The notes under the pieces are model-generated. The model did not search any database. It was not told the origin of the DNA and saw only the letters and a program-made list of their open reading frames with translations. The translations under genes were made by a program, and so were the position numbers. A DNA stretch of 59,774 bases, the filler included, from Sphacelaria rigidula (Eukaryota): assembly GCA_964200075.2 (NCBI GenBank). It is 9 parts of 9 records of this genome, joined end to end, with 100 filler letters (N's around TTAATTAATTAA, not from the genome) between each part and the next. Parts side by side here need not be neighbours in the genome. Positions count along the whole stretch, not along the records: positions 33,266 to 39,818 come from CAXNAA020019385.1; 8 more parts are not named here. The stretch is one strand, 5' to 3'. Below are positions 6,554 through 53,122 of this stretch, piece by piece. Positions within the stretch are counted from its first letter, which is position 1; each line of letters begins with the position of its first letter.

Positions 6554-6653
6554 NNNNNNNNNNNNNNNNNNNNNNNNNNNNNNNNNNNNNNNNNNNNTTA
6601 ATTAATTAANNNNNNNNNNNNNNNNNNNNNNNNNNNNNNNNNNNNNNNNNNNN
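6554..6653. other. Artificial contig spacer
   Basis: 100 bp of N-TTAATTAATTAA-N, with stop codons in all frames. Confidence 0.98.
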
Positions 6654-6740: not shown

Positions 6741-7645
6741 TTTCGGCTAGCTGTGAGCAAACCAGAAATTTTCTCCGATTCTCTGGATGCTTACTTTCGG
6801 TAAACCACCTCTCTGCTCGAATCGGAAGACTCCCGCGCATCTCCCCCGATTTTTCTTCAAAATCGGGGCAAAATCGGGGGAGATGCGGGAGTGTCCCGAT
6901 TTCAACAGAAAAGTGATGTATCAAAAGTCAACACCCAGAAAATTGGAGAATTGACCTGGTTTGCTCATAGCTAGCCGATAAACATTGCCCAATGGACTGG
7001 GGTCCGAAAAATCAATCCACGGGAGAAAGCCGCCTGTACACGGGCTGAAATCCCCATATTTGTACAAATCGAGATTTGTTGCCATAAACGTGGGTCAAAC
7101 GCCTCAGATTTAGAAAAGTGGGCTTTCGAAAACAAAACGACGCAAGATCGGTAATCAAAGAAGGTGTGGGTGGATTATTGTCCCCCTCTATATGGGTGAA
7201 ATGACGTTTTCGCGCAGAGGAAGGCTGATATAGGAGTGTTTCCTTTTTTACTTTTTTTGAGCACTCCACATTCCTACTGCGGTGCTTGTCTTTCGTTTTG
7301 CTGAGAGAAGGGTTCAGCAGTCCCTCCCCTCGTCGACTGTGAAGTCGAACTTTGCGTACTCACGACGTAGTCGCTCTTCACTGTTGGGCACTGTGTGAGA
7401 GAAAATCCCAGGTCTTCCCGAGATTCCAATCCTCGTCACAACCGTCAGAAGGTTTCGAGGTTACCATCTGAGCCACCGAGGCGACCGGCTACTGCTGTGT
7501 GTTCCTCAATCCTGTCACCCCTGTGAGACTGATCATTCCTCGACACGAGTGGTGGATCGATTGGGGGGCGCTTCTTCTGGGCCACCAGCACTATCAAGCA
7601 GCAAGGTGCAGGTCGTCGAATTTGATGGTGGAGGTACCCAACCCT

Positions 7646-8065
7646 GTGTTGTATAGGATACGGTTTGTTGTATACCCGGAGCATGTTGCCGAGTATTTTC
7701 CCTGCCCGACAGTTCTGTGACTTCTGTAAGACTTTCATACCGGTACCCGACAGTTCTGTAGCTTCTGCAAGAGGTTCATTACCCTACCAAATACTTCCGC
7801 GGCTTCTGTAAGACTTCACCCCCGTACTCGATAGGTCCGTGACTTCCGTAACACTTTCATACCCCTCCTCAATCGATCTGTGACTTCTGTAAGAATTTAA
7901 TATATAGTTGATAAATAGTTCTGGATTCTCTCTGTAAGCTTCCTATACCTACTCGATAGGTTCTGTGACCCCTGTGCGAATTTCGTGCCGGTGCCTGTTA
8001 CTTCTGTAAGTTTTGTAAAAGACTCTCATACGCTACCAAAGATAACCTAACCCTACGAAAAACAG
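7646..8065. mobile_element. MITE with internal TTCTGTGACTTCTGTAAGACTTTCATACC repeats
   Basis: About 8 degenerate ~40-bp units. A reverse-orientation homolog lies at 43070-43602. Confidence 0.75.
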
Positions 8066-15000: not shown

Positions 15001-16510
15001 AGCTGGAGCGGTGGATCAGCGAAGGCAGCGACCGCAACCGGCACAATTGCAGCGGCCGGCGTCGCAGAAGTGGCCCTCACGGCAAGCATGGCTGCCGCAA
15101 CGGCGTGTTCAGCTTGCAAGGGATGAGGACGAAGGAGGGGCGGTGGAGCAGTTGCTACAATTTCAGGAGGATGAGGACGAAGCAGTGATGGTGGAACAGC
15201 CGGTACAGTTGACGGGGGTATCAAGCGGTACTAGGTCGATGGATCCGTGAATATTGGAGACAGAGGAGACTGCAGGCACCGATCTATAACAACAACAGCA
15301 CCGTGTGACACCGACGGTCACAAGATCCAGATCAAGAGCATCGCCGCTGGGACTGTCTGGAGCATTTGTGATGCTGGCAGTTGAGGCGGACATCGCAAAA
15401 GCTGTTGGTCAGGGAGACGCTGGTTATCATGACAAAAAACTGCTAATGGACTCGAGCTCGCGGGAGACACCGCGGACGTATGCGCAGGCACATTCCGGAT
15501 CACACGGCGCTATCTGGAAGGCCGCAGAAGCCAAGGAATTCGTCGGACTAGCGGCAGTCGGTACTTTCGTGCCAGCGGGAAGAACGTAGCAACGAGGGAC
15601 TAACGTCATCCCGTCCAAGTCGATGTATGCTTGAAAGACGAATGAATTCGGTAAGGTTGTGCGCGCTAAGGCTAGATTAGTAGCTAGAGGGTTTTCGCAG
15701 AGTAAAGGTATGGAGGTTCTGGAGATCTTTTCACCGCGCCCGTGTTCACCGAGTGTTCGTTTGTTAACTGCCATTGCGTGCGAGCTGGGGCTGGATCTAT
15801 GCCATTTTGACGCCGAACAGGGGTTTGTGCAATCAACTTTGGATGAGGAGGTGTACCTTCGTCTACCACAAGGCTGCGGGGACCTATCTGGTAAGGTCGT
15901 GAAACTTGACCGGAGTCTTGCCGACCTCAAACAAGCATCGTGCACTCAGCACAATCATTTGATGAGAGGGATACGGGGTCTCGGTTCCGGAAAGTGTGCT
16001 ACAGATGCGTGTGTGATGCATCTGCAAGAAGATGGTGTGATTTCAATAATGGTTGTCGTACATGTAGATGGCATATTTGCTATCGGACGCAAGAGCAGGT
16101 GTGACCAGTTTGGTAGGGATCTCAGCCGATACATCCCCATTACTAACCTTGGAGAGCTTCGTCTGTACGCTGTCTGCGTATTTTCACGCGACTCCGACTT
16201 AGGTACGATTACGATTTCCCAGCGGGCAGTTGTTGAGAACATTGTGACGAAGTTTGGTGTTACTCGCAACAAGGAAACCCCCATGGTGGTTGACTTAACG
16301 CTTGATGTATTTGACCCAGCTGCACCTGATGTAGAGGTACCTTGTCGATTTTTAGTAGGACGTTTGATACGGCTTGCTAACCAGACCCGCCGCGATATTC
16401 GCAACGCGGTACGTGCCGTGGCGAGGTAAATTCACGCCCCGGAACTTTTGCACTGGAAAGCAGCTTTGCATGTTTATATGTATGTTGGATTCACAAGTAG
16501 CTACAGTATG

Positions 16511-20046: not shown

Positions 20047-21620
20047 ACTCATGTGTCTGCTGCCCCTCTTTGTTTTCGGCAAAGGACCAAGGAAATCAAA
20101 CGCTACTATTTGCCCCGGCCACCGCACCGTATACCGATCAGATTTCTTGGCCTGACATGCGTAACAGCATCCAATCCAGAATTTAACACTTTCTTTCATC
20201 CCTATCCACCAATAGTACCATTGCAGAAGAAAGAGGGTCACTTTCCCCCCCAGATGTACTGCTCCCTTGCGCGTTTGGTCCATTACCCAGGGCCTCAGCA
20301 ACAAGGGGACATAGGTTCTCATCTATTCGTCTCCGAGGTGTCGCTCAAAAATGCCCGGGTTCTGCTCTCCGACTCCAAGGGCGCGACCGTCAGCTTGTGT
20401 ACGAACAGTTTCCCACCGTCCGCCAGCTCAATCAAATCGCCTTGTTTTAACAGATCTCGTAGTTCTTTCTCGTCAATTCCGCTATCCCCAGGTTTCCCCT
20501 CTTCCTTCGAGAGTGTTGTCTTTCCCTGTGAGAGATACCCGGCAGTCGTTCGAGTGGTCAAATCAACTACTTGGATTTGCGCCCAGTCACTTGCTAACTT
20601 GGTACACATCCGCTCCCCAAAATTGCACGCTTCGCCGCCTCTAGAGTGCGCGCAGGCGTATCTGAACCGTCCTCTTCGATCGACCCCGCCTCCTCATCCG
20701 TGATTACAAAAGTTTGCGAGCCCGCCGTCTCGTGTAAAAACTGTTCACCTACTTCAGTAACGGGGCAAGCATGTAAGCACAAACCCGGTTCCCGCTGCCC
20801 ACATACCACATCGGTAACACTCTGGGACAGAATTCGCGAGTCATCCTATACCACTTCCGGTCCCTTCCAGCTCAGTCCAGCACTCGTGGACTTCAGTCTC
20901 TCCTGCATCCGATCCCATGTGACGTCCGCTATCTCTGACGAAGTCAGTGGGGCGGCCGAATGTGCACTCTCCCCCCATGAAACTTACCCCGGGGAGCAAG
21001 CCCACCCAAGCTCAAAGCACGGCGACCAGACAGCACAAAGGGAGGCCCGTCCAAGCTGGCAACATGAGAGGATCTGAGATCCCGCGGCGCCACCCCTCTA
21101 GCACCGATAAAGTAAACATCTAAATCAGCCGGGTCAGAGATTCGAAAACGTCCACTTACATCTTCTGCGCTGTAAGCAAGAGGAAGCTGCGATAGCATAT
21201 CAGCGTTGGAAATAGCCACCCCAGGCTTGAAAAAGATCTGATAGGTGCCAGTACTGATAAAATCTTGCCAAGGCTGGGCCCTAGGCACTTTCTCGGCAAG
21301 ACTGAATGAACTGCGCAAAGGTTGATGGTCGCTGAAAATTTGGAAAGGAATCCCATAGAACAGCGGCCGGTTTCGCTTGACGGCCCAAACAATCGCACCC
21401 GCTTCCAACTCGTTGGCAGTCCAGTTACGCTCGTTAGGCAAAGTACCGCCGCTCAAAAAACACTACGACCGCACGTCATCTTCCGAATGGCGTTGCTCCA
21501 CCACCGCCCCCACCCCATCTTTACTCGCGTCCGTACTCTGTCTATAATCGAACTCTATGTTCACAGGATGGGCTGATGTGGTGATCTCAGATTTCAGTTG
21601 GATCATTTGATTGCAACATA
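20047..21620 (-). mobile_element. Decayed Ty3/Gypsy pol fragment (RNase H to integrase zinc finger)
   Basis: TDASKDG, ERNWTANELEAGAIVWAV..SDHQPL, NADMLS; H..YYWW..CYACQ; FDFLGPLP. Cut at 20046 by a CATCCTACG element. Confidence 0.88.
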
Positions 21621-23102: not shown

Positions 23103-23516
23103 AACAGAGGGTTCTATATATGAGGTTCATCAATGAATTGAGGTTCGAGCTCAAAACAGTACTTTCTCCACGCTTTCAGCGATGGTGCCCAATGACTTTG
23201 TTGTCAGCCTAATGCCCCTCGATTGCGTAGATACTTCTTCAGCGCATTTGATCGACTCTGTGAGCTTGCAGCGCTGTCCGAAACCGCCATTTTTACTTGT
23301 TTTTTAGGGGGGGGAAATATCAGGGAAAACAGCAGGTTCGGTTAGCGCTGAAAGCTCACAGAGTCGGTAAAATGCGCTGAAAAATATCTACGCGATCGAG
23401 GGGCATTAGGCCAACAAAAACGTCGTCGGGCACCATCGCTGAAAGTGTGGAGAAAGTACTGTTTTGGGCTCGAACCTCATTTCATTGATGAACCTCATTT
23501 TATAGAACTCTCTGTT
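23103..23516. mobile_element. 414-bp foldback MITE with ~185-bp TIRs and a 3-bp TSD (TTG)
   Basis: Removing it restores the integrase sequence PGHLVSFDSFGPL. Termini are AACAGAG...CTCTGTT. Confidence 0.92.
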
Positions 23517-23518
23517 TT

Positions 23519-24664
23519 GTGTCCTTTGACTCATTTGGCCCTCTACTGACCACAGGTCGCGGCAACACCTACATCTTACTCTTCACTGACCGCTTCAGCC
23601 GCCACGCGTTCATATACGCGGTAACCGCTGCAGATTTCACTGCGGCCGGAACGGCCGATATATTGGTCCACGACTACATTAAGCACTACAGTTGCCCGAA
23701 ACGGCTCCTTTCAGACAATGGTCAACAATTTTGCTCAGATTTCTCTGATGAGCGTTACAAGCTCCCGGGCATCCGCAAAATTGCCGCGAGAGCCCACCAC
23801 CCGAACAGTAACGGTGGTCCCGAAAGAGTTAATCACACCATGGCCCAGATGCTCTCTATGATTGTGAATGACCGCCAAAATGACTGGGACCTACATCTCT
23901 CGCACATCATGTTGTCCTACAACAACTCGGTTTACGCCGCCACAGGCCTTTCTGCGAACGAACTCCATCTCGGACGTTACCCTCGGCTACCCATCACCGT
24001 GTTTGAGCGGCACACGTTCGATGGCCACCAAGGATTGGATCAGGATCAGATTTACTATCACAAACTAGCGCATTCACAACAACGCAAAGCGTTTACCCTC
24101 GTGCGCGAACAACACGCTATCAATGCCTCGCGCCTTGGGATATCTAATACTGCTCTCTACAACCTCATGCACAAACGCCCCAACCGGAAAGTTGGTGATT
24201 GGGTCTGGATCTGCAACAGTTCGTCGACCATCCGCCAAGGCACCAGCAAGGCAGCCAACGTCACAATTTCAAAGACAAAAATGTCCCTCAATTGGACAGA
24301 ACCATTCAAGATCCTGACAGTCGGACCATCGTCATCATCATCGGATGATAAATCCGTTGGTGACAAACTGCTCTATCTCGAGCTGCCTCGCGACGTCCAG
24401 GGCAAGGATACCGGACCCCGCGTCTCCGTGCACAGATGCAAACCCTGCACGAACCCGCATGATACAAGTGACATGCCCAAGTACCTGCCTGCCGGACTAA
24501 CACCGTACGTTCTCAACAGCTATTCGACCAAGTACCCGCCCTATCATGTCACCACGGACAACTTGACGGACCAGCCCCTCCGATTGACCGTGCCCACCAT
24601 CTCCGGCCACCAGATCACCCGTGGCCGAGATGGCAAAATTGCTGTCATGTCTACGACCCACTGA
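23519..24664 (+). pseudogene. Gypsy integrase core and C-terminus (381-aa open segment)
   Basis: The D,D,E motifs are intact in this segment. The upstream part is broken by a MITE and by stops. Confidence 0.88.
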
Positions 24665-32001: not shown

Positions 32002-33083
32002 AGGTGACGCCAATGTTAGGAGAGGACAAAAGAGTCCTTGAAACGATCGGGGTCCACTCAAATGATGAATGATGTTGTAGCAAAGTTCAAAGTCCCTCGG
32101 AAAAATCTTCTGTGCAGATTGTCGGCTATAATAGGGGACGCTACACACGCGTAAAAGGGAAGTGAAAAATAGTGCACATCCTCACCGCTAGCCGGCGAAA
32201 AAGGGTATACCTGCAAGCCTCTTCTCGTTGAATAACCGGAAGCACACGCTCATAAAAGGGGAAAACTTCCACAAGTGTCCGTCGAGGAATCGCCTCTTCA
32301 CATTGTGGCGACTGTCTATCTTGCCTATACATACTACATGTATATACTTAAAATCTGGCTTCCTTTTCTACTCTGAAACGCACAATTCAACTCAATTCAA
32401 CAAACTCATTTCTGAAAATCTACCTACTGCGCATGTTGATACCCCGCATCGTCTGTGCCTCTTAACCACATACACCGCACGACAGTCAACAGCGTCCTCC
32501 CGATACTGTAAGCCTTTCGGAGTCCAGGACCAGGAGAGGACTGCCCGGAGTAGTATTTGCCTTAAAGGCCATGCAACACATTATGATAGTCACTTCTACC
32601 ATATCTGTGCTATCGATATCTTGACGTTATACTAACGTGGCCTGTCACCGAGCACCTCTCAAAACCCCCCCACGAGACAGACACATCACAAAACCGGGTA
32701 ACCAGGGAAAACTAGACGCCGATCTAACTTGCAGCAGCCGACCGGGACAAAAATCATACCCTCAACAATAGATCACGTTGTCAAAAAGTGTAATGCGCAC
32801 AGTATGGAATCTAGTGTCTATTGCAATAGACGCAATGATCGATTCTATACGCAGCACACTTGTTGGCAATGTAATATAATATATTCATTATTATCCAGGG
32901 TGTAAAAAAATAAAATAAAATCATGCCATCATCCTTCAGTCACGGGGAACGACCGAAAACACACGACGCCCCACACCACTGTACACTACATGTAAACTAG
33001 AGTTGTGAACTGGTTCGGCTAACCAGTTAACTGGTTGCAAAAAATTACATCAGTTACAGTTATTATCTATTAAAAACGGATAA

Positions 33084-33596: not shown

Positions 33597-35180
33597 ATGA
33601 CCACAGACACGTTTGCGTCCTTAATCGACAGCATCATACCGAAACATGTGTTTGTGGCAGCGACAGTCGACCAGGGGGGAAACGCGGTTGATCCCTGGAT
33701 ATCTCTCGACGCCCCCGTACTTCTTTGTCGCGTCCAATGGATCAACTCGGCTGTGATGTGGATGCTCGGGATCGCCGGCTCAGCCTCTAGGTGCCAGAAC
33801 AAGGACATGGAGGCGCAAATCCACAGGGCTGCCGCGTTGGTCGGCGTGTTCAGCCATTCTGCTGTCAACAACGATGCTGTGCGAGCAGTCCAGCGCAAAG
33901 TTAAGGAGCAAAAGATGAAGGAACAAGCAGAAGCCATGGCGGCGGAGGCAGCGGGCATCACTCTGGCACAAAGGGAGTTCCTGGAGAGGGCGAAATGGAT
34001 GAATTCGTGTAGCGAGGAACCGATCAACTTGGAAAACATCAAGTTCGACATTCTGAACCTAATGAGGGCCCATGACACCAGGTCAGCTTCACTGCAGGAA
34101 GGAGAATGTGACGTTCGGGGTTGTACTGTGACATCCTTCAGATTTATCCGTCGTTGTGTTGTGTGCGCTTTTTGTTTTTTGCCGGGTGTTTCCGTTTGCC
34201 TGATTTATCCTGTCTTGCTTTGTCTCCTATTATTAGAGCGTTTGTGTACATTCTCCTCCGTTGGGTTCCTGTGTTTATTTTTATCGTTTTTTCTACCTTG
34301 AAGTCGTCCGTCTTGCGATCATAGCTATCCGTCGGGAATCAGTAAAAGTCAGAACATCAATTCACCAAAAATGATCAGTTGCTGATGGCTGTCTCGTCGT
34401 TCACACCCGCGTGTATACGCAACAATGAATGCCAGGTGGGCTTCGCAGCTTGCGTTTTTGGTACGTTTGATCATCCTCGAAAAGTCCATCGCCCAGTAAC
34501 TCCGAGAAGAAAAAACAGAATGCGCACCGCAGGCTCTCGCCGACCGATTGGGTGGTTGTGAAGGAGATCTGCTGCGTGGTGGAGTACGCGGAGGGAGTGA
34601 AGATCGGTATCCAGGGCGGCATTGACAGCATCCTCAGCCGGACCATCTACCCGTTACACCAGCTGGTTGACATCCTCACCTCCGCAGACGTAGTGATGGT
34701 CGACTTCGAAAAGACCAGGGAGGCCTAGACGGGGGAGGGGCCACCGGTCCACGAGCTGAAATGCGTCGATGACCTCCAGGCCCCAGTGCAAAAGGCGGCA
34801 TCTGTCTGCATCCAACAGCTAGCTCAAGGGTCGCAAGGTCAACGTGGCTTCCACCACCGTGGAGATCCTCGCTCTCTACCTGGACCCGCGCTACAAAACA
34901 ATGGACGACTCGGTGTGTCGCAACCGGGATTCCGCGGAGGTGGACGACCACACTTTGAGCGAGAAGGCGAAGGAGGCGCTGGTCGCCCTAGGCAAGGCGG
35001 TGGACAGTGAGCTGTGTAGCAAGGAGACGGCGACTTCTGTTGATGATGTTTCTGCGTCTCGACGCTGGCCGCATCAAGGAGTTGGAATTAATCCCCATGG
35101 GAATGGGCAAGATCCACGCAAGCCAGGAGAAGGCCCGGCGACATGCCATCGCTGCACAAGGGGAATGCCGAAGGCGAAGG
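33597..35180 (+). pseudogene. Decayed intron-containing hAT transposase
   Basis: Exon 33597-34081 has TVDQGGN (second catalytic Asp), LLCR..INSAV (C-x2-H-x-LN region) and DTR|gt. The exon from 34533 has LSPTDWVVVKEICCVV..IQG and then LALYLDPRYK. Stops and frameshifts are present. Confidence 0.8.
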
Positions 35181-36260
35181 GTAAATCGTAAATCTTGCAC
35201 AGGACGAGGATCTCGTGTATGCACTGTAGTGGTGAAGGAGAGGGTCGAGGGGCATCGTGAATGCTTGTATTGAGTTTGTTCTTTGTATTATATGTTGCAT
35301 TTTATCCTGTGGCGGAGGGTTCTCTTCATTTCTGCTGTTTCGTTGTTCATTATAATTATTATTTTTTATTGAGTATCTTGTCAGAGTAGCGAGCGTGATA
35401 TTTGTTTTGTTTTGTTTTCATTTTTCGCCATTCGGTCGAGAATTTGTTTCTTGTCAAAAGTATCGTGTGTTTTAGTTCTTTACGTCGGGTATCTTTATCA
35501 GGCGACCACGGCTGGTGTCGTAGTGGTCCAATCTGATGGAAATCGAAGAATATTTATCAGTCTGTGTACACCAAAAACCAACTGCAGCATGGCACATCCT
35601 GGACAAAATGTGGTCATTAGCTGCAAAGGAAAATAGTGTACTGCGTAGAGAATACGCGTATAATCATGATTGCTGTCCCGAGCAGGGTAGACCTCAATGT
35701 TGAAGAAGTCGTGTTTGTTCTCTTCTTTCGGGATGATGACGTACGCGGGTCTGTAGGCCACCGTCATGAGCGATGTGGATCTGTTTTCTCGGTTGCCTTC
35801 CTTTCAAGCATCAATTCAACGGATTTATGTGGTGAATGTTTCATGCTTTCATATCGCTGTGCCCACATACCCGACGTCCTCACAGTCCACAGCTTGCTGG
35901 AGAAGCACGTCACATCTCCGGAGAGCGCCTGGACCCTGGTCATCATGCTGCTGCCGCTCGTAATGGGGGTGAAGTTTTCCTGTTGTTCATGCCCCGATGA
36001 AACGTTTCGGGCCTCCGCCACCAACGACAGCAGCATGAAGGTCAGGGTGCACCCCATGTCCCAAGACTTTACATGGTGCCCCAGCAAGTGTGTTGGTTCG
36101 CGTCGTAAGAGGTGGCTCCGTTTGTCGCTATATATGAGGGGTTGTGGGTTGCGAGGGTATAGGCTCTGGTACAGTAGCAACAGGAAAGACGAAAAATGAC
36201 TACTATACCTGTGCCGAGCGGGCTCTTGACAAAACTGCGCACCCTGGACAATACAAAATG

Positions 36261-36670
36261 TAATATATATTGCCCGCTCAATATATCGACGCGTCGGGTG
36301 GTCAATATATATTGGGCGAGCAATATGATGACACGACAGAGGGTCAATATATATTGTGCCATCAAGATATCGAGGCTCGTGACATGCAATATATATCGAC
36401 CGAACAATATATCACGACACGCGCCACCTCAATATATATATATTGGCCGAGTAATAGGTTGGTGCGAGAAGGCACCAATATATATTTATCGAGTAATATA
36501 TTTGCTGCCACCCGAGGTCAATATATATTGACGATTCAATATACTCGACACCCGAAGCGCCAATATATATTGCCGCCCCAATATGTCGTGCGTCAACGCG
36601 TCCAATATATATTGGGCGGACAATACACGAGGGAACCGACGGTCACAATACATGTTGATGTAGCAAAATA
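36261..36670. repeat. Array A: 10 units, palindrome plus half-site with unique spacers, ~42-bp period
   Basis: Unit starts: 36261, 36303, 36345, 36387, 36430, 36476, 36519, 36561, 36603, 36646. Confidence 0.92.
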
Positions 36671-37132
36671 TATTGATTTTAACATATATAATGGAAAGTG
36701 TATCGGAAATAGTATGGTGAGCAGTTCTTTGTTCGCGGGCGCCATTCGAAGACGTATTTTACATGCCGAATATGCTCAATGTACCAGTCGCCCCGGTGGC
36801 TCAGTTGGTAACCTCGTAACCTTCTGGTGGGATTTTTTCTTGCACCATGCTCAACAGTGGAGAGCGACTATGTCGTGGGTACACAAAATTCGACTTCACA
36901 GTCGACGAGGAAAAGGGACTGCTGGATCCCTCTCGCGATAAAAAATATAAGCACGTACCGCAGAAGGAAGGTGGGGTACTAAAAACAAAAACGAAAAAAA
37001 GAGCTCCTGTGGTGACCGTCCTCCTGTGTGACCNNNNNNNNNNCCCGGCTGATGCGCCCACATATCCCGAAAGGGGTAGACTGGCGTCCAGAATAAATGG
37101 GACGACAACACACACTCCTCCGCAAGCGTGTT

Positions 37133-37518
37133 CAATATATATTGGTTGCACAATAGCTATCCGATCAGCGTGCGTAATATATATTGGAGAAACAATTCTT
37201 CTGCATGGTTTGCGTTCAATATATATTATGGTAACAATATCCTACACATCGCCTCGACTCAATATATATTGACACTTCAATACATACACGGCCGGCATGC
37301 ACAATATGTATTGAATGTTTTATTCTCGGAGCAACTGCATGTCCAATATGTATTGTCGTACACACTACTTCATGATCATGACACGAGCAATATATGTTGT
37401 TGCTTCAATATCTCCGAGGACATCTCAACACAATATTTACGGAAAGGACAATATTTGCGCTGGCTCCAATACAAAGTATTGATATCATATTGGAATATAA
37501 TATATTGTCCAGGGTATG
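37133..37518. repeat. Array B: about 8 units ending in an internal right-TIR copy
   Basis: Unit starts: 37133, 37175, 37217, 37260, 37302, 37344, 37388, 37431. TATATTGTCCAGGGTATG lies at 37501-37518. Confidence 0.88.
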
Positions 37519-37868
37519 AACAACACAGCCCCGGTGACCACAGGGGTACCAAGAGGCGCATATCGACCCGCGTTTTCTGTCGTGATGTTTAGCCAAGATA
37601 TTTATATTACATGCTGGAAAGGGGATGGGCGGCCCCGCACCGTTGGCCAAATAGGTATCAGGAGGCATATATACCGGGTCGCCTCTTCTGTCACCATATT
37701 TTCTAACCAGTATACATACATATATATATATCGAATGCATTCGACAACTTTCCGAAGTAATGCACGCGAACTTCTGCGGCTCCCTTTAAAGCCTTCCACA
37801 ATCGGCACGGGCTCCGGCATCCATCGCGTCTGGACCTCTCCTAGAGCGTACACGATACTTACAACATC

Positions 37869-38190
37869 TAATATATTTTGACCGGCCAATACGTCGTCAC
37901 GCACGCAGACCCAACATATATTGACCGGTCGATATGTTCTCATCAATGCGACCCTAATATATATTGGTCGTGCAATATGCTGTCGCCCACGCTGCCCCAA
38001 TATATAATGACGGGACAATATGTGTTCAACCCAATAGTACCAATATAAATTGGGCGGGCAATATCTATGGAGTCCCACGACATCAATATATATTGGGCGC
38101 GCAATACATGTGCAGTCTAGGGGTACCAATATATATTACACCGGCTATATATCGCAAAATTCCAATATGATCGACTAATATATATTGGAA
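37869..38190. repeat. Array C: 7-8 units, 43-bp period
   Basis: Unit starts: 37869, 37912, 37955, 37998, 38041, 38084, 38127, (38176). Confidence 0.9.
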
Positions 38191-39818
38191 ACATATTGTA
38201 TTGTCCCGGGTGTGCAAAACTGTAACAGAGGGAAAAACCCTACGCCCATACACAACGTGATCTTGATTCAGAACATATTTGTGGTACTGGCTGAATACTT
38301 ATTTCTCGGTTGTTGTCGTTCCCTTACTCTGCGCACTTCCCAACTATTCCTTCTTTGTATTTTCGTAGATACTCTAGTCGGATCGACCGTGGTATTTCGT
38401 GATTCGCATGGCAAGGAAAAATTTTGGAGTCTGGATTTTGCGAATGACCGAGAGTGCATTATGAGCGCCGGTCGTGAGTATGGATAATGACACATATCCT
38501 CAAAGTCAACCATGCGCTGCAGCAGTAGTACGCAGGCAGTGCGGCCCATTTCCCACATCGGTCACAGTACAGCAGTGCAGCACAGTACAGCGCAGTCCAA
38601 GTTAAAATATGCCAGTGTGTGTGTCGACATATCACACCGATTGATGGATTTCCCAGCATGAAGTCGGGGCAGCAGCGAACGTTGTTGGTGATGGCGAGTC
38701 GAAAATAAACACGGACGACAATAAGCGTGTCTCCGTCAGGGGTGAAACATGACCTAGTCTTGTATAGACGTGTATCCACATTTATAGGTAGACCACATTT
38801 CCGGGCCTGCCGTCTAACTGACTCATCATGTTGGGTTTTGCAACATACGCTCCAAACTTTCTGAGAAATCAATGGAATCACAACCCCTCAAAGTAGACGA
38901 CTTCCTGTGCATGTTGTTGCAGAGCGGGTTATGTTGCAGAACATGCAACATCATGAACGACAACACGTACACAAATTCGGAGGAATTCAAACCATGGTAG
39001 CTGCTGTGTCGACGGTATTTGGTAGCACGCTGCTAATCCTCCAAAGGTACGCGGCGTGATGTTTCGTCCGACATACGTGGTTTGCGCTGGCGTTCATCAG
39101 GCCACGATATCTATAATATTGGACCGGTACTGTTTGGATGATGAAGGGAAATCACGATACTTGTTTTGTCAAGTGGGTCATTTTCGTCATGACAGGTTTC
39201 ATAGAAAGACTTCGTCTAAGCCGCGGAGACGTCAAACCCTACGCAGATGGTGTGCCAGCGGTATTCATGTGTTCATCAGTGTGTGCACGGTACGTGGCGA
39301 CTTCTGTGCCATAGCTTGGGGTGGCACGTAGGTGTAGTACAGTGGCTGCCATTGCCTCAGCATTCAGTCGTCGCGCCGATGCCGTTCCTGATGTACTCCC
39401 CGCTTGTGGTGTGTGGCAGCAACAAGTCAGGAGAGGTCGGAGACTAGGCGATGCACTTCAAGACTTGGGTCGGGCAGCCAACATTGTGCGTTTGTTTGTC
39501 TCACCGTCTAAACCTTCACTTTCCTCGGAACGAGTCCGTGGTATCAAGGGAACGACGCGTCTCCCTCTGAGTATGTAGATTAGTGGGCGATCTAACTACT
39601 CATTTTGAGGCATTTTAATATTATATTCGTGAGTTTCAGAACGTAGTTTCAGATTCAGAGTGGATGCTCTCTAGCGTTCCTAACCGGCGACTTTTTTCTT
39701 TCTTTTTCTTGAGCACACGTGCTGTGCATGCAGCTGCCGTACAGTACCGCATTCGAGGAATTCGGCGGTCTGGTTGGTGAGATACCGCACAAAGCATTTT
39801 TACGCCTGGGGGGCATTT

Positions 39819-39918: not shown

Positions 39919-40727
39919 ATCAAGGGCCGACAGCGTGCTCGGGAAGGGGTGGGGAGGGGAGCGGGGGGGCGGGGGGGGGGGGGAGATCACTCTGGGAAAC
40001 TCGCACTTTGCCTCTTCGTACGTTATCGTTTGTTCAGTTTGTCCTGTTTGATTTCCCCTTATTTTCCACCTTTCACGGGTTTCCTTTACTTACTGGGTGT
40101 TTCCGTTTATGTAGCGACAGGGCAGTGATGTCTCAAGTCTCCGCCTGCAGTTGATGGCTGGCCACGTTTACTGGTCAATCTGTCATCGTCAATCAGCCAC
40201 AATCTAAACCCTCGACCACGCGAACAGAAGGCTGACTGAAGCTTTCGTCAATCTGTCCGATCGCTTCCTCTAGTTCAGAGAGGACATGCTCTTGGCCCCG
40301 TAGCGATGTTTCGGCAGTACTCAGCCAAAGCAATAGTTGTGTGGTACCGCTCGTCTGAAGCACTTGGTGACTCCCACCACTCACACGGGAGCGACAATCG
40401 GCAGTTGCAGACTTATTTTTCGGGGTACCCATTCATGAATTCTCCCGACAACCGCTGAAAAAAAACGTACTCTGCCATGACTTGGGTAAAATGACATGGG
40501 TCCTCTTGTCTCTGTCTTCGAACCAGCAAAACCCACCACATGTTGCACACCCCCCCACGCCCTCGTTTATGCGGTTTGCACACTATTAAAAACACGATCC
40601 CATCAATGTGATTGCGTGCTCTCGAAATACGTGGTTTCTGATGTCTAACGCCATGCAGGAGCCGCGCTTGTATCGTGCGTGAAAATATTTGGACGTGTAT
40701 GACGTATGGTGTAAATGTATGCTGCAG

Positions 40728-40867
40728 GGGTGGTGGCGGTAGCGGCGCTGAGGATGTCGTGCGGGGTTGACTTTGGTTTGGCCGACGCGTTGGCGATCCC
40801 CACGGTAGCGGTAGGCTGGAGTTTTCAGGAATGGGCGATCCACAAATACCTCCTGCACGACTTTCAG
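40728..40867 (+). CDS. Fatty acid hydroxylase/sterol desaturase superfamily protein, first visible exon (5' exons not identified)
   Basis: CAG|..|GTGAG borders; EWAIHKYLLH is the first His box. Confidence 0.85.
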
Positions 40868-41145
40868 GTGAGGTGTGAAAGACGTTGCCGCGTTTCGTTT
40901 CCGCCACTACCGCCAGTTGCGAAGTTCGTAGCCTGAGGCGATGAAAAATCTCACGTCGATTTCATGTATGTAATCACACAGATAGGCCCGGTACTTCCGT
41001 CAGATCGATGCCCTTATTATCGAAGGATCTCAGCGTGACACAATCGAGGATCCCAACATTTTGGTGACCTGTGGAAATGTAATAACGTTGTATTCGTTGC
41101 TCTGTCTCCTGTTTCTGCCTCTATTGTCGTTTGTTGTCACCCCAG

Positions 41146-41357
41146 AATTGGCTGGGGTACGACGTACACAACAGCCACCACGACAAACCTTTTTACCACG
41201 TGTGCGTCGACCCGCCCGACCTGGTTGTGGGCTGGACGGTTGCGGCCGCGTGCATATTCGGGCTGCTTCTGCCCCTCCCTCTAGCCCTCACCGTTCTCGG
41301 CGCCTACATGACCATGGGAGGGGTGTACGAGTGGACGCATTACATCGTGCACACGCG
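41146..41357 (+). CDS. Fatty acid hydroxylase family protein, middle exon
   Basis: Phase-consistent AG/GT borders; HNSHH and YEWTHYIVH boxes with a hydrophobic TM hairpin. Confidence 0.9.
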
Positions 41358-42169
41358 GTGAGATCGACGTCGTTGATGCACGGACACGAGTCACCCAGGG
41401 GGTGGGGGTGGCGGGTTGCCTTCAAATATGGTTGGGTTAGAGCGGTTGAGTTCTCTCCAGACCGGCTTCCCGACTACATGGTTGAATATATTGATGTATC
41501 GATACTCTCAGGTAAAATGTAGGAATGTGAAAATGATGCAGAATTTCAATTAACATGTCTTGTTGTATTGTTTGGCAATCGGCCGTTTGCGATTTGCGAG
41601 ATCTCAAGGCCTATCCGCGCGAGCCTGGGAAAGTGGGCTGGGGTGCGTCCCCGTGATATGCATACGTAGTGTCCGAGACGTTTTGGCGGCGGAGAAACAA
41701 AGCCAAGAATATTCCACTAGAGCTCAAACTTCCGTTCCAAATGTTCACGTTCCTATGAAAGCTGGCCTGGGCGCAGTCCAGTCATGTGACATAGCAGACG
41801 CTGTGTAATGTTAGTGCAGGGCCATGATATGAAAGTGCGGGAAACATGAGATGCAAGGGAAAATGCAAAAACATCTTTCTGAGAATGGTGCCGCGGTCTC
41901 GGAAGAAATCAACAACCCATTTCTGCCCCGTTTCTTACTTGCCGCGTTACGATCGAGCATCGACTCGGCTCTCCCATCTAATTCCGTGTTTTTTATTGTT
42001 CCAACTCAACTTCCTTTGTTCCTCGCGTTTCCGAACGTGATGGAAACCAGAAAGAAAAAAGACATGGACCATTCGGACTCGAATCTCAACCCTACGGAGC
42101 CTCCCCATTCTACTGTAGCGTGTTGGTGTACCAGTTTGTCCCCAGAGCGCCGCGTATATTCACGTCCAC

Positions 42170-43069: not shown

Positions 43070-43602
43070 GTGTTCTGTAGGGATTCCTTCAGAACTTGAA
43101 AAAATATCAGGTACTGACATGAAAGTGTTACAGAAATCACAAAATCGTCGAGTACCGGTATGAAAGTCTTACAGAAATTACAGAAATTGTCGGCGAGAGT
43201 ATGGGAGGCTTACAGAAAACCGTACCGGCAATCGGGTATTTCTTCAAGGGCATCCCCGTGCTCCGGGTACGGGTGTACATTCTGTACACAACTCAAAACT
43301 GTCGGGTAAGGGCATGGGAGGCTTGGAGAACTCACAGAAACTGTCGGATAGGGTACGGAGGTTGCACAGAAAACCGTACCCGCAACCGGGTATTTTATCA
43401 AGGGCAAACCCGTGCCCCCGGTAACGGCATGGCAGGCTTACGGGACTCGCAGAACGTTTGGGTCTGGGTATGAAAGGTTTTCAGAGTTTACAGAACTGTC
43501 GGGTACTGCTATGAAAGTCTTACAGAAGTCACAGAACTGTCGTGTACGGTAAATACACGGGAAAATACCCCGGGTATACAGAAAGCGTACCCTCAAGAAC
43601 AC
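43070..43602. mobile_element. Intronic MITE of the 7646-8065 family
   Basis: TIRs GTGTTCTGTAGGG and CCCTCAAGAACAC; internal GGTATGAAAGTCTTACAGAAGTCACAGAA repeats. Confidence 0.8.
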
Positions 43603-47797: not shown

Positions 47798-50700
47798 TGT
47801 GAACGGGGGGTCATATATAGCGTAGTGGTCTACTGTAAGATTGCTGAGGTCGCAAAAGTGCCCTGGAGGCAGTGACGACACAACTGTCGTCCAGAGGCTT
47901 GATTTCGTGCGAACTCCAGAGATAAATGTACGCACTGGAGTGGATTATTTTCCCAAGTTTCCCCAGATGCACCTTTAGTGGAATCACGTGCTCAAGCGAA
48001 TCATGTGCCCGCTAGCGGCTTCGCGTACTGTCGGTTCCAGAGGCATTATGACGAACCAGAGGGCATTCCATCCTCCAGAGGGGCATTCTGCTCCCTGGAG
48101 AAAAACAACGCGATAATGGGATTCCAAGGAGGAGTCGATTTGCTGCGTGTGTGTGCAAGATGTGGACTTCATTATTAACGATTCCGCTACCCCGTGCAAG
48201 GGCCCTTTAGCCAAATGATACACCAAGCCGTAAGGTTTCAGTATAATCGCATGCATGATTGGAGCAGTGGCAGGGAACAGGGGATCCTGGATTGATGGCC
48301 TGTTTCTGTGACCTCTTGCTGTCTGGTTTGTGATCCGTTGAGGACTACTACGTGACAATACAAGTTAGAAGAAAGGACTTGTCGAGTACGAGGCCAGTGA
48401 TACTGGAGGATTCCCTCGTTGAAAGTCCTCTTGTCCAGATCGTCTTGCAGAGGCTACAATATCTATGTATGTTCCTCGACACTCTGTGGAGGTGTTTGGC
48501 TGAGGAGAAGGGGCCGCAGCTGGAAGCAGTTTGGCACGCAGGCGGATCGAGACTAACTTGAAGCGCACAGCGGTGGAGAGTACTCAGTGGGCTGGAGGAC
48601 GCACAGATCAGGCAAGAGTATCTCGGTCAAGTGCTTGAATCCTAGATGACGTGGCTCAAGCGGCGGCAGCACCGCTGGTGTTAGGTGAGCCGCTAGACCC
48701 GCCAAAGTATGACGAGGGGGGGACCGAGGAAGCATCACGCGTTTTTTTCGCGGCTTATTTCGGATACGAAGAGCGTTAGACACCTCATCCCTACATACAT
48801 TCATCGGTGATTTGAAGCAGCATGCCGGGTACACCACAACCGGTGGCAAACATGATACTGCGCGGGCTGCAGCAGACCTGCGTATAGTGCCTTCAACGCA
48901 GCAAAGCGGTAGAATATCCGTCAAGGATAGAGCGATGATGGTTAAGTCATCGATGGAAAGTTTTTCGCTGAAAAACTGTCGGTGTAAGCCATGTACCGTG
49001 TAGAGGACAGGAGCTGGTTGCCAGGCCCGACCGAGTCGGTTTCCACAGCTTTGGTGGGCGGGATTTCGCCTCCAGAATTCAAGGCGTATGTCAGAAGCGT
49101 ACTCACTTATGTACACGGCTGTAAAAAGAAACCGGCCGTAGTGTTTAACAAGATATTTGATGCCGCCGACCACTGGAAGGTCATTGAGGCGCATAGCCGG
49201 CGCGAATATGCGACAAGTGGGGCGCGCCGCAAACAAGAACAGCAACAGAAACAGCAGCCGCCTTCGCGAGCGTCGTCCACTCGCGCATGTTACAACTGCG
49301 GCGACAACGGACACCTGATGAAGGATTGCCCCAAGCCTCGCCCTCATAGCGCTGCTCAAGGAAATGCGTGGAATTCATCAGGATCTCACGGCGGTCGCCA
49401 CAGTGGACGAGGACGTGCCAACCATGAACGCGGGCGCGGCGGCCGCGGTAGCAAGCAATCGGCAGCGGATGGTGGTTCCTCCGCTGCTGTTTCTTCCACT
49501 ACTTCATCAGGTGGTGACTCTAGATCTTATGGTCCGTCCGTGTCGGGGCCGGCAGTGTACGCGGGAGGTGCAAATACTTCGTGGGGAGTGCCGGAGCGAA
49601 GAGTTCGCAACCCCTCAGCCAGGCAGGATCCGTGCCTGGTGCATCTCCTGCTGCTGCGACAGCTGTAACAGCGCCGTCTGCATAGTCGGCGACGTAGTCT
49701 GGGTGGACCGCCTATTCTTAATCATCGATGCCAAGTATTGGAGCGCAGCCCTGGCGTCAGGTGACTCTTGGTATCGACCAGGGTTCTCCGGTAGGTGTAG
49801 TGCCTGTCGATCGCAACGCAGACTGTTTAAGCTCAGATCTTTTCTTGCCTGGTTCCGTAGCTTCGTTCATGGCCCGCACTATTCTGGTTCAGGGTCCGCG
49901 CTCACGTCGATCGATGTGGGGTTGCTGGAACAAATGTCTTCGCAGTTTGAGGGCGCTCAGCTGCAGATTCCGTTCAAAAATGGACCGCAAACGGCGTAGA
50001 CCGCCACGGGTGCTCCCGTGACGGTTACACGTTAAATGGTGCCGATTACAGTCAGCGTGCGTACGCCGTGGGGGGCTGTGGAGTTGCAGCCCATCACTTT
50101 CGCTGTCATGCCCGGCAGGGACAACGTATTTTTGTTTGGGATGGCGACGATGAAGGAGCTCGAGATCGATTTGTATCCGCTGGCGTTGAATAAGTTACGC
50201 CCGCGTGCTGTGCTGGTGCAAACCGGCGTGGAAAACCCCATCTATCTTGCTGCGAGGCGTGTGGCCGTATCTATACGGTCATTCCGGAGAGCTAATGAGG
50301 ACGAGGCTCCTGCGGATGAAGCGGTGGAGCGCTTGGTCGATCGGGGGCCCGACATGTTTATGGACCCTGCGGAGGAGAGGGGTGCCCGGGAAGGTACCCT
50401 AGAGGATAGCGTGCAGCAGGCCGAGTAAAAGGGCCTGAGCGCCAATGGCGCATATCGTCTGCGTGATATTTCGGCTCGTCGCGTAGATACATTTTGTCGT
50501 GCGCTGCGTGGTGACCCACCAGCGCCATGGAGCCAAATGAGGGTGCAGCTCAAGCCATAGGCGAAGGCTGTGAAGGCCAAGCCTCGCCGTTACGATCCAG
50601 TAAAGACCGGGTGGCCTGCTTCATGCATCGCAGCTTTGGTGGCGTTTGGTGTGTTGGTTAGGAACATTCAGGCTGTGTGGGCGAGTGCGGCGATGGCGGT

Positions 50701-53122
50701 GCCGAGGCGGGAAACATTCCGTTTGGTCAGCGACAACCAGGCGGTGAACGCGCAGATGGAACAGTCTCCGGGGGTGATGTTAAGCCAAGAAGATATGCGG
50801 GAGTTGCTGTAAACCAAATGCTTCAGCAGCTTAGACCTGCTCCAGGGGTACTGGCAGATGCCTCTGGCGCCGGAGGCTGAGGAGATCTTCACGATCGTCA
50901 CGCTTGACCGTTTGTTTACGCCTACTCGTGTCCCACAGGGCGTGTTGAACGCCACGGCGTATTTCCAAGGTGTGCTGACTGACATTTTGCGAGGTCTAAA
51001 CTGTGAAGTGTGGATGGGTGACGTTTTCTATTTTGCTGAAACCGAAGAAGTATTGTTCGCTTTGCTTGACGAAATTCCTGGCCGCCTGGAGAGTGTTGGT
51101 CTGTTCGTCGCTGCACATCAGTGCACCTTTTTTTCCCGCGAAGTGGTTTGGTGTGATAAGGTGTACTCCAAGGGTACTGTTTCGCATGATACCGTCCGCA
51201 TCCAAGGTTCGAGCAATATGCGACGTCCTCAAACCGCTAGTGAGCTGATGCAGTTTCTGCAAGCGGTATATTGGTTGCGGGCTTCGCTCCCGCGCATGGC
51301 GGAAGTAGTCGCGCCGCTTCGTGTCTTTTTGGAACAACTAATGGTAGGGGCTTTGCGTCGGACCAAGCCGGTGGCGCATAATTGTATCATCCCGGAGGAC
51401 GCTTTGACCGACCGAGGATCTTGTGCGGGCATGGCGTGCTGCGCAAGATTTGGTGGCGCAAGCGGTGCCGCTGTATCATCGTAGTCCAGGATGCGTTGTT
51501 CTGGTGTTTGCAGATGCTTCGGATTTCCACTGGGGTAATTTTTCAACGCAAGTGCCGGTCGCCGAGTTTAGTAGTGGCATTGCGCTCGAAAACATTTCAC
51601 ATGAACCATTGGCTTTTCAAGGATTCACAGTTGCGGTGGGCGAGAGTGGACAAAGAACGTCTCGCGATAGTCAATACGTTTCGAAAGCTAGATTACTTGC
51701 TTTGGGGTGGTGTTCGCATTTTCACCGATCATCGCAATCTGAAATACACTGTTAACCATGAAGAATGTGTCACATTGGTGACGAAGGCCATGGCGCAACG
51801 GCTTGAAAGTTGGAAAGGGGTGCTCGGCCAATATCGTTATGCCATTGAACACATTCCTGGAGAGCGTATTGTTGGGGAGATTTGTTGTCTCGTTGGGTGA
51901 AGGTTCCCACCGTGCCTCGTCGTTCTGTTGCCATGTACAGCCCGTGTAATGCCGATGATTCGCTGCTGCCCTCGTTAGATGTCATTCGTACCGCGCAGCG
52001 CAGAACAGTCGGCGACGGTGTTCATTCTTCTCTGACGACTTTCGGCCAAGCTGCCTTGGCTGACGATGGTTTGTTTCGCGTGCGTGTTGGCAGTAGTGAT
52101 GTTCTGTGGTTTCCGTCGGATGATAAGGCTCTACGAACTTGCTTGATGGTGTGCGCTCACATGCGGTCGGCTGGTCACCGTGGTATGGCACCGACTCTGA
52201 TCCGTTTGAAAGAATACTGTGTGTGGCCTCACATGGATCCCCACCTTCGTGAGTGCGTCCGCCAGTGTTTGCATGGTGTAGACACTCATGCTGGTGCGAT
52301 TATTATACTTCGTCCGTATGGCGATACTGTGCATGGTACTGCGCCAGGTGAAGTTGTTACTTTGCTTTTATGCACGTCGGAAGTAGCGGACCTGAAGGTG
52401 CTAATGGTGTGCCTGATAAGGATGGTTTTCGGTAGGTCTTAGATATCATGGATGATTTGTCCAATTCCTTTCGGTTGGAGCCGACCGAGGCTTGCACCGC
52501 CGAGGTTACGGCTAAGCACTTGCTCCATTGATTTAAGACTTTGGGGGTGCCGCGTGTGGGGGTTAGTGATACTGCCACGCACTTCAAGAATCGAGTAATC
52601 GCGCGGCTGAGCGACACGCTCAAGGTACGAAACCAATTTGCTGTTGTGTATACCCCTTGATCGAGTGGTGCTTGTGAACGCATGATGAAAGAGGTTGTTC
52701 GTTCGTTGCGGTTCATTTTGTCGGAATAAGGACGGTGGGTGTCTGAATGGGTTGATGTTTCGCCAGCCGCTCAGTGGGCGTTGAAAACTTCCTTTCGTGA
52801 ACGCTACCGTAAACACTCCGTACTGTGTGATGTTTGGACGTGCGCCGCGTACAGCGGTTTCCGCGCTGGTTCCTGTCACTGGAGGCGAGTGGGACGTCGA
52901 TGTCATGGGTGCTGATACGTTGTGTGACAAGGTTCGAGGCAGGGTTGACGAGCAAGTGCGGTTTTGTAACGAAGTGCAAGCTGCTGTCGCGATGTCTCGC
53001 GAAACCAAACGCAAGCTTGCTCAGGGCCAGGCTGTGTTGCTCAAGTTTGCAGATGGAGATTTCGTCTTGTATGCCCGTGTTCGTAGGCGAGGTGTGACGC
53101 CCAAGTTGATGTCCACATGGAC
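47798..53122 (+). mobile_element. Near full-length decayed Ty3/Gypsy (copy C): putative 5' LTR 47798-48213, gag, PR, RT, RH, IN; cut off by the gap
   Basis: CYNCGDNGHLMKDC knuckle; DLLQGYWQMPL, RVPQGVLNA and WMGD (dead YxDD); FADASDFHWG, IFTDHRNL; H..GHRG..C..C; MDDLSN..SDTATHF..ACERM. Many stops and frameshifts. Confidence 0.93.

Follow-up and report, generated by a model that had tools for sequence, protein, structure and literature searches.

Three direct arrays of a palindrome-based unit in a high-copy, probably hAT-type transposon from a Sphacelaria rigidula assembly

The window analysed here, a stretch of 59,774 nucleotides (filler included) from assembly GCA_964200075.2, contains an element of 1,977 bp at positions 36238–38214, or about 1.65 kb without the SINE nested in it. 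A search for repeats and for TSD/TIR pairs showed the element to be flanked by perfectly matching 8-bp copies of CAAAACTG (36230–36237 and 38215–38222), a TSD read from this single locus. The 17-bp TIRs lie at 36238–36254 (plus strand, starting CGCAC and including one CAATAC half-site) and 38198–38214 (minus strand, ending GTGTG). They are identical at 15 of 17 bases, with one mismatch at the left end (CGCAC versus CACAC), and the two ends stay similar over about 36 bp, interrupted by one 4-base gap. Both the TIRs and the perfect TSD had been claimed in an earlier, sequence-only reading of this DNA, and both are upheld. Of five candidates in the window that combine an 8-bp TSD with a 14-bp TIR, this element has the fewest mismatches. 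A scan of ORFs and domains returned no coding match inside it, and no further copy was found in the window.

Three arrays, all in the same direct orientation (plus strand), lie within the element: array 1 at the left end (36261–36675; 10 units with periods of 42–43 bp), array 2 (37133–37473; 8 units, 42–44 bp) and array 3 at the outer right end (37869–38187; 7 units, whose six periods are each exactly 43 bp, followed by a terminal palindrome at 38176). With this palindrome the count of 10 + 8 + 7 comes to 26, in agreement with the number first reported. Each unit consists of a 12-bp palindrome, a 6-mer, a CAATAY half-site and a spacer of 18–19 bp. The palindrome occurs 23 times in the element at up to one mismatch and not at all in the rest of the window, and 28 of 32 matches at up to two mismatches fall inside the element; only 8 copies, however, are perfect. 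The proposed period of 42–43 bp likewise holds in the main, with 21 of 24 intervals at 42–44 bp. The other three measure 46 bp, which reflects a 4-bp TA expansion near 36432 in array 1, and 18 and 49 bp, which are array ends. The ends, 1,210 bp in all, contain 60 CAATAY half-sites, compared with 46 in the 57,093 bp outside the element and none in the SINE and linker; those of array 2 are more decayed (1.14 mismatches per unit). A derivation of the units from the TIR and the first palindrome was rejected, as the offsets (12 and 16 versus 18 and 24–25) do not fit.

The right end is present twice. An inner version (37482–37518, minus strand) with a third TIR at 37502–37518 is homologous to the outer right end, the two aligning with a score of 37 against a best of 26 from 300 shuffles. 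It is spanned by contigs of the family and is therefore internal in most copies. The linker that follows (37519–37868) includes a (TA)n run, is part of the family (depth 59,000–136,000) and has no half-site between 37519 and 37860. No homology was detected between the DNA segments preceding arrays 2 and 3 (p = 0.15 and 0.28) or, unit by unit, between these two arrays at 7 offsets (0.21–0.30). A larger element, running from 32755 to the inner TIR and enclosing a hAT relic, was discarded, as it has no TSD and its inner TIR is spanned by contigs. The relic lies at 33627–34957 in the window, and any sharing of ends with the element would be hypothetical. At 32998, a hAT-like left end stands alone, lacking a partner end in the window.

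The element is one decayed copy of a high-copy dispersed family. The family data are contigs of public runs, in which copies of less than 80% likeness are invisible; in runs X2 and X4, depth jumps 60- to 300-fold at both element borders. Over the host element, depth amounts to 58,000–231,000. Decay of the window copy is evident from nine of the listed motif positions at which it deviates, since 96–99% of the X2 depth there carries the motif letter. Runs X10 and X12 (organisms B and D) contain pieces of the element at a depth of 2–10 per contig; X10 also carries flank variants of organism A, and because carry-over is possible in both runs we make no cross-species claim. A joint for the empty site of the whole element is absent among the 15 joints listed of 616. 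The only hint at such a site comes from flank pieces, whose ends lie 78 letters from 36152 and 34 letters from 38248.

The same contigs bear on the spacers. At seven listed spacer positions (among 40 of 691 rows), at least 98% of the X2 depth is a single letter, and contigs are colinear across 6–10 units. These near-fixed letters show that the spacers are inherited, not acquired. CRISPR arrays consist of a palindromic repeat alternating with unique spacers at near-constant length, and the element shares this alternation, which had earned it the label CRISPR-like. The label, and with it the suggestion of spacer acquisition, finds no support here, as the letters and order of the spacers are common to the family. 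We consider it very improbable that the arrays acquire spacers or serve to yield guide RNAs. Such a function would suit the repeat-spacer appearance, the constant length and the folding of array 1 (better than shuffles, z = −4.8, 0 of 100), and copies whose spacers differed entirely would drop under 80% likeness and go unseen. Repeated palindromes necessarily fold, however, which accounts for array 1, and array 3 folds unremarkably (z = −1.6). As had been noted before, no cas gene is apparent: no Cas domain was found in 40 ORFs scanned (11 + 29, the latter from 44 ORFs of at least 170 aa), and there was no Rfam match. Unlike those of CRISPR arrays, the spacers are fixed across copies, measure only 6 and 18–19 bp and contain conserved bases at fixed positions, and the arrays sit between transposon ends. 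They are no new immune or memory system. Reading the unit as a hairpin, ATATATTG-N6-CAATAYRT, was also rejected, the C at column 24 (6 of 21 units) being uncompensated on the other arm. Pattern matches from metagenomes (L001, L002) are minisatellites of homogeneous 21- or 42-bp repeats that lack the half-site unit. Those from prokaryotic genomes (L003, L004) are palindromes occurring in pairs within AT-rich intergenic regions of Clostridia; we regard neither group as related. Viral contigs gave 0 matches to the unit pattern, and 24 candidates but 0 confirmed hits to hAT alignment A1.

Comparison of the units separates constrained from free bases. Pairwise identity is 0.886 in the palindrome and 0.733 in the half-site, against 0.258 in free spacer columns. 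The claim that spacers lack similarity is correct for the long spacer without columns 34 and 40, which is at background (0.258 versus 0.259 expected; permutation p = 0.41), but not for a CG at the centre of the 6-mer (11 of 22 units, reached by 0 of 5,000 shuffles), a T at column 26 (16 of 22) and a C at column 34 (17 of 22). The central CG is present in 6 of 9 scored units of array 1, 0 of 7 of array 2 and 5 of 6 of array 3; the G at column 40 falls short of significance once corrected. These additional bases, like the SINE, the duplicated inner right end and the single orientation of the arrays, had escaped the sequence-only reading.

Units resemble one another more within arrays than across them (p = 0.012), and adjacent units are a little more alike still (p = 0.06). 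The within-array excess indicates that the units descend from an old tandem duplication, as judged from sequence likeness. Both observations would also suit an old 42-bp minisatellite decaying neutrally within the element, its AT-rich palindrome merely looking conserved, as would the three short arrays reported by TRF (period 42–43, 69–73% matches) and unit-sized deletions among family copies (joint 37225 to 37310, 84 bp). Neutral decay, however, cannot leave 12 + 6 columns at 0.73–0.89 identity beside background columns, and it is not readily compatible with a standard deviation of unit length of 0.59 bp. We regard this explanation as quite improbable; spacers aligning as an ordinary decayed minisatellite, named beforehand as a refutation, are not what was found. 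For 7 of 9 parameter sets, no more than 1.5% of neutral simulation runs attained that standard deviation, with assumed indel sizes, the 18- and 49-bp end intervals excluded and the 46-bp unit entered as 42. With the indel rate at its lowest, p was 0.16 (d = 1), 0.05 (d = 1.5) and 0.013 (d = 2). So constant a length despite unrelated spacers points to selection on spacing. The original proposal of a lattice of protein sites, kept by selection instead of homogenisation, is supported for both motif and spacing; the units themselves nevertheless descend from tandem duplication. Strict phasing on one face of the helix, also proposed, applies to adjacent units alone: assuming 10.5 bp per turn, array 3, whose units all measure 43 bp, turns through 205 degrees across its 7 units, so that a fixed footprint length accounts for the spacing as well as phasing does.

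It is likely that the element is moved as a hAT, in keeping with its original designation. An 8-bp TSD, short TIRs and subterminal repeats by both ends are all present, and the ends resemble those of hAT-2_Ec32 from Ectocarpus (Repbase hAT-2_ESi), an autonomous element of 8.9 kb with 92 hits (PMC12477816, supplement MOESM3). By description, not by sequence, the two share CACAC-GTGTG termini and a short TIR (21 bp there, 17 here); the 8-bp TSD is assumed for hAT-2_ESi and seen here, and the comment on hAT-2_ESi mentions no arrays (PMC12477816). Against this assignment stand the lack of a transposase in the element, the left end of the window copy (CGCAC, not CACAC) and the weakness of a 5-base terminal match as a classifier. 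The same anatomy could conceivably belong to a different mover, of KDZ/Zisupton, MULE-foldback or P-like type, but this is improbable. Ectocarpus KDZ families do make 8-bp TSDs, carry tandem repeats within their termini and show ends that are themselves repeated in tandem, and the element likewise combines an 8-bp TSD with complex tandem-repeat termini; the listed KDZ termini, however, are of GGGG type or CAGTA without a short clean TIR, whereas here a clean 17-bp TIR ends in CAC-GTG. According to the available part of PMC5225508, Muta1 of Aedes, a type-2 foldback MULE, shares with the element a TSD of 8–9 bp and a short subterminal repeat (9 copies of 12 bp) with spacers, but places its repeats, 3–4 bp apart, in mirrored 145-bp TIRs. 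The present TIRs are short, with end likeness stopping at about 36 bp, and the 42–44-bp composite units are direct. P-like termini are CAAGG with a 7-bp TSD, and MuDR has GGGCG, a 9-bp TSD and a long TIR. The termini also fit EnSpm/CACTA (CAC-GTG), but the duplication is 8 bp instead of 2. Virus DNA of Ectocarpus harbours IS4-type elements with 8-bp TSDs, which are protein-encoding and single-copy in the accessible text of PMC3627910.

The arrays likely bind a protein, and the binder is probably the transposase. On balance, we favour a non-autonomous cut-and-paste hAT of the hAT-2_ESi (CACAC-GTGTG) type, its subterminal repeats arranged as a lattice of transposase pads with three half-sites each, much as if the Hermes left end had been repeated. 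The host would be an algal, probably brown-algal, genome with very many copies, mobilised in trans by a transposase whose gene lies elsewhere. The basic site would be the half-site CAATAY, present in the TIR too; two half-sites placed head to head make up the 12-bp palindrome, and a third, 6 bp further, creates a second dyad centred on CG. Such a triplet fits a pad on which an oligomeric transposase would place three DNA-binding (BED) fingers. The pad would have been multiplied by an old tandem duplication, after which lineages selected for mobilisation would have kept the half-sites and the 42–43 bp length while other bases drifted to saturation. With arrays in one direction the two ends are asymmetric. 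The right end was duplicated, which would make array 2 the superseded inner version, and the window copy has since decayed and received a SINE.

In Hermes, the octamer reportedly places three BED fingers on a palindrome and a third site. By analogy with this octamer, which covers about 45 bp of end DNA, it is possible, though we hold this only tentatively, that a single complete transposase oligomer has each 42–43-bp unit as its footprint. If so, the ends would load 7–10 transposase rings in a row, each oriented alike. Such a row, whether polymer-like scaffold or transposase sink, would let an element without genes win out over its autonomous partner and multiply to thousands of copies. Such an end architecture would differ from that of Hermes, where inner sites are dispensable, and would offer a natural ruler for transpososome geometry.

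In the portion of PMC10368747 available to us, Hermes BED domains bind a quasi-palindrome cooperatively together with a third repeat, and the exact placement of the sites is important; in Tol2, a palindrome is followed at a distance of 10 bp by a third repeat. The element shares with both the palindromic pair of short sites plus a third, one site in the TIR, asymmetric ends and strict positioning. In that account a lone triple site lies no more than 35 bp from the left tip, and the others are scattered and dispensable; here the three-half-site unit recurs about 25 times at 42–44 bp, at both ends, with CAATAY in place of AAGT. The same passages report that putative BED sites beyond bp 50 of the Hermes left end are unneeded (70% activity when mutated) and that the right end is not bound by BED domains, which argues against a need for 25 pads.

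That number, beyond the capacity of one transpososome, also suits a role in chromatin control instead of synapsis, the arrays binding an anti-silencing factor encoded by the element (VANC- or TnpA-like), the transposase as transcription factor, or a host factor. Here too the motif would have been multiplied by tandem duplication and kept by selection. Transposases can regulate transcription (available part of bioRxiv 10.64898/2026.08.24.746577), and a host factor was proposed for the dispensable inner Hermes repeats (PMC10368747, same portion). VANC target arrays of Arabidopsis VANDAL likewise consist of a short protein-binding motif tandemly multiplied in a DNA transposon. In the passages available from PMC5735166, however, these belong to the MULE superfamily, lie in internal non-coding regions, have a demonstrated anti-silencing role and show no fixed-period constraint, whereas the present arrays are terminal, with a putative function, in an element without a gene to de-silence. 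The half-site also lies inside the TIRs, and arrays adjoin TIRs in 3 of 3 cases. We consider this alternative to transposase pads rather unlikely.

Literature searches turned up no account of an array or family like this one; an entry may already exist in a repeat library (Repbase, Dfam). Among the hATs studied most closely, subterminal repeats lie scattered, and the reason why ends need 100–200 bp beyond the TIR is open (available text of PMC10368747). Since the composite site recurs in about 25 natural replicates, its constrained and its free bases, as well as the permitted spacing, can be read from sequence, giving precise predictions of the binding motif and oligomer footprint for an uncharacterised algal hAT clade. 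The element further supplies an observed 8-bp TSD for CACAC-GTGTG ends, and so high-copy a family is a possible tagging tool for brown algae.

The nested insertion at 36787–37115 (plus strand) is tRNA-headed, SINE-like and separate from its host element. Its depth is 1.0–4.2 million in the public-run contigs, against the far lower values of the host; mixed loose ends, reflecting unrelated flanks, occur at 36787 and 37115, and an empty site is given by a joint from 36783 to 37116 (332 skipped). A tRNA-like head, very high copy number, unrelated flanks and a simple-repeat tail are thus all present, as in tRNA-derived SINEs, while ARAGORN found no tRNA gene and no clear target-site duplication was seen at the borders. 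The head is A-box-like and the tail is (CA)n; the B-box segment is deleted in this copy, and B-box-like letters are present in others, these names following the box consensus. Notes on Ectocarpus link (CA)n tails to CRE LINEs. A second copy of the SINE lies in the window at about 7241–7488.

The 8-bp target site duplication (TSD) CAAAACTG lies on both sides of the element (36230-36237 and 38215-38222), and the 17-bp terminal inverted repeats (TIRs) are identical between the ends at 15 of 17 bases. When the whole window was scanned for exact 8-bp duplications with a 14-bp inverted repeat, five candidates emerged, the element's pair having the fewest mismatches. At up to one mismatch, the palindrome CAATATATATTG occurs 23 times inside the element and nowhere else in the window; only 8 copies are perfect. 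The units, each comprising the palindrome, a 6-mer, a CAATAY half-site and an 18–19 bp spacer, number 10, 8 and 7 in arrays 1 (36261-36675), 2 (37133-37473) and 3 (37869-38187), plus one terminal palindrome. Intervals of 42–44 bp account for 21 of 24, the others being 46 bp (a TA expansion) and 18 and 49 bp (at array ends). The element proposed by the sequence-only reading, bounded by TIRs and a TSD and carrying three palindrome arrays, is thus borne out.

The family was compared in the contigs of four of 14 listed public sequencing runs, in which copies less than 80% alike to the element escape detection. Summed depth rises from 590–1,007 in the flanks to 58,000–231,000 in the non-SINE element in run X2, and from 269–858 to 25,000–107,000 in X4; single long X2 contigs have depths of 58–130. 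As a crude ratio, these depths point to between one thousand and a few thousand copies, summed depth not being equal to copy number. Since the flanks (35900-36237 and 38215-38600) are themselves moderately repeated (8–16 contigs per position), the element sits inside another repeat. Long contigs align colinearly to the window copy across 6–10 units at about 85–95% identity. The comparison covers 40 of 691 letter differences, 24 of 2,757 loose ends and 15 of 616 joints. Among the differences listed, the window copy departs from the motif at nine positions (36457, 37175, 37308, 37440, 37441, 37931, 38007, 38048 and 38146), where the motif letter holds 96–99% of X2 depth. Seven listed spacer positions (36337, 36597, 37146, 37901, 38011, 38070 and 38120) have at least 98% of depth on one letter, and an eighth (36488) shows 87% agreement. 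The window copy has therefore decayed in motifs and spacers alike, and the near-uniform letters indicate that spacers are inherited along with the element. This colinearity and uniformity disfavour an array that acquires spacers, and the earlier CRISPR-like suggestion is not upheld; it had itself noted that no cas gene is visible, and a scan of 40 ORFs yielded no Cas domain. No Rfam family matched.

The arrays all share one orientation, so that the element ends mirror each other for about 36 bp at most. Array 2 is closed by a second right end (37482-37518) with its own TIR (37502-37518), which aligns to the outer right end with a score of 37 versus 26 for the best of 300 shuffles. Contigs cross this inner TIR at undiminished depth, and it is therefore internal in most copies. 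A tRNA-headed SINE-like insertion occupies 36787-37115. None of these three features had been recognized from the sequence alone. Summed X2 depth of the insertion reaches 1.0–4.2 million, about 10 times that of its host; hundreds of contigs carry unrelated flanks at each border, and a joint from 36783 to 37116 represents the empty site. As a separate insertion, it leaves a host element of about 1.65 kb. Other SINE-like copies contain a B-box-like segment that is missing here. A second copy lies near 7241-7488, within a stretch of about 7190-7490 (minus strand), the family having a (CA)n tail. According to an Ectocarpus paper, a true SINE could not be established there (PMC12477816), and given that uncertainty this very abundant family may merit separate study.

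Constraint was assessed over 22 units, excluding the 18- and 49-bp end intervals and scoring the 46-bp unit as 42. Mean pairwise identity is 0.886 for the palindrome, 0.733 for the half-site, 0.307 for the 6-mer and 0.291 for columns 27–42 (positions within the unit); without columns 34 and 40 the last falls to 0.258, which is background (permutation p = 0.41). The claim that spacers lack similarity holds for these free columns but not for T26 (16/22 units), C34 (17/22) or a CG at the 6-mer centre (11/22; 6/9, 0/7 and 5/6 in arrays 1, 2 and 3). ATATTG-N6-CAATAT has its dyad centre at this CG, and the unit therefore comprises three half-sites in two overlapping dyads. Units are more similar within than between arrays (p = 0.012), a remnant of old tandem duplication; the proposed absence of tandem homogenisation agrees with the background spacers. 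Unit length has an SD of 0.59 bp, and in the contig alignments (29 pieces) 936 substitutions are accompanied by 161 gap letters. For seven of nine parameter sets, neutral simulations gave an SD this low or lower in no more than 1.5% of runs; at the lowest indel rate the share was 16% (d = 1) and 5% (d = 1.5). Unit spacing is therefore probably under selection. A neutral minisatellite is disfavoured by this low SD and by conserved motif columns beside background spacers. Phase coherence in arrays 1, 2 and 3 is 0.82, 0.70 and 0.42 at 10.5 bp/turn, where array 3 rotates 205 degrees, and 0.98, 0.92 and 0.77 at 10.6 bp/turn. Phasing is thus less strict than in the proposed lattice on one helical face, and a fixed footprint fits equally well.

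The terminal bases of the window copy are GTGTG (right) and CGCAC (left). The element is quite likely a hAT. A degraded hAT transposase fragment, aligned by tblastn (33627-34957, plus strand), lies 1.3 kb upstream; it has 116 relatives, with PF05699 in all four long ones among eight scanned. It comprises the middle part only, with stops and frame changes, and a search of it for a BED or dimerisation part found none. The fragment attests hATs in this genome; it is not linked to the element's ends. Nearby, a 150-bp relic (32755-32904) has TIR-like ends of the element's type, differing from the TIR query at 4 and 3 bases. On the right it is similar to the inner right end (score 27 versus 23 for the best shuffle); its left-end match is non-significant (p = 0.10) and its flanking duplication is imperfect. 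A single TIR-like sequence (35593-35609, plus strand, 3 mismatches) has no partner end or TSD in the window. Another DNA transposon may have its left end at 32998-33040 (TAGAGTTG, then three AACTGGTT/AACCAGTT repeats), likewise with no matching right end in the window.

In Hermes, a quasi-palindrome is occupied cooperatively by two BED domains, and a third BED domain contacts a repeat close by; exact site positioning matters, and the octamer extends to about bp 47 (PMC10368747). In Tol2, a palindrome is followed after 10 bp by a third repeat (PMC10368747). The element's unit shares this three-site plan, and its half-site is also present in the TIR. The arrays are probably transposase pads, copied up by tandem duplication and retained by selection among element lineages for mobilisation in trans. 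Against such pads, BED sites past bp 50 are not needed in Hermes and none is required on its right end (PMC10368747). That each unit is the footprint of one transposase oligomer seems rather doubtful. The main rival is a chromatin role, as for the VANC target arrays (PMC5735166).

In itself, a non-autonomous hAT that carries subterminal repeats is nothing unusual. Literature searches found no array of about 25 same-direction composite sites at fixed period whose spacers are saturated and whose right end is duplicated; such a family may be present in Repbase, Dfam or the FASTA supplements of PMC12477816. None turned up in the collections searched (viral, metagenome and prokaryote). Loci in two Clostridia genomes (L003 and L004, both 3001-3054) each have two CAATATATATTG palindromes 42 bp apart in intergenic sequence; they are unrelated to the element and probably tandem operator sites.

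Transposons are abundant in the neighbourhood, a eukaryotic region where relics of copia- and gypsy-type LTR retrotransposons occur (15635-16429, 20944-21462, 23492-24664 and 48988-52442; RVT_2, RVT_1, RNase H, integrase and zinc knuckle). Artificial spacers (44 N, TTAATTAATTAA, 44 N) stand at 6554-6653 and then every 6,652–6,653 bp (8 places), so DNA across those points may be non-contiguous. Probable host-gene exons lie at 40715-41361 (plus strand), with weak Atlas leads (0.84–0.87) to fatty-acid hydroxylase/lipid desaturase clusters. Tandem repeats of 41-bp period (7705-7863, 43119-43218 and 43469-43547), alike in wording (GACTTCTGTAAGACTTTCATA and its complement), are possibly subterminal arrays of another element.
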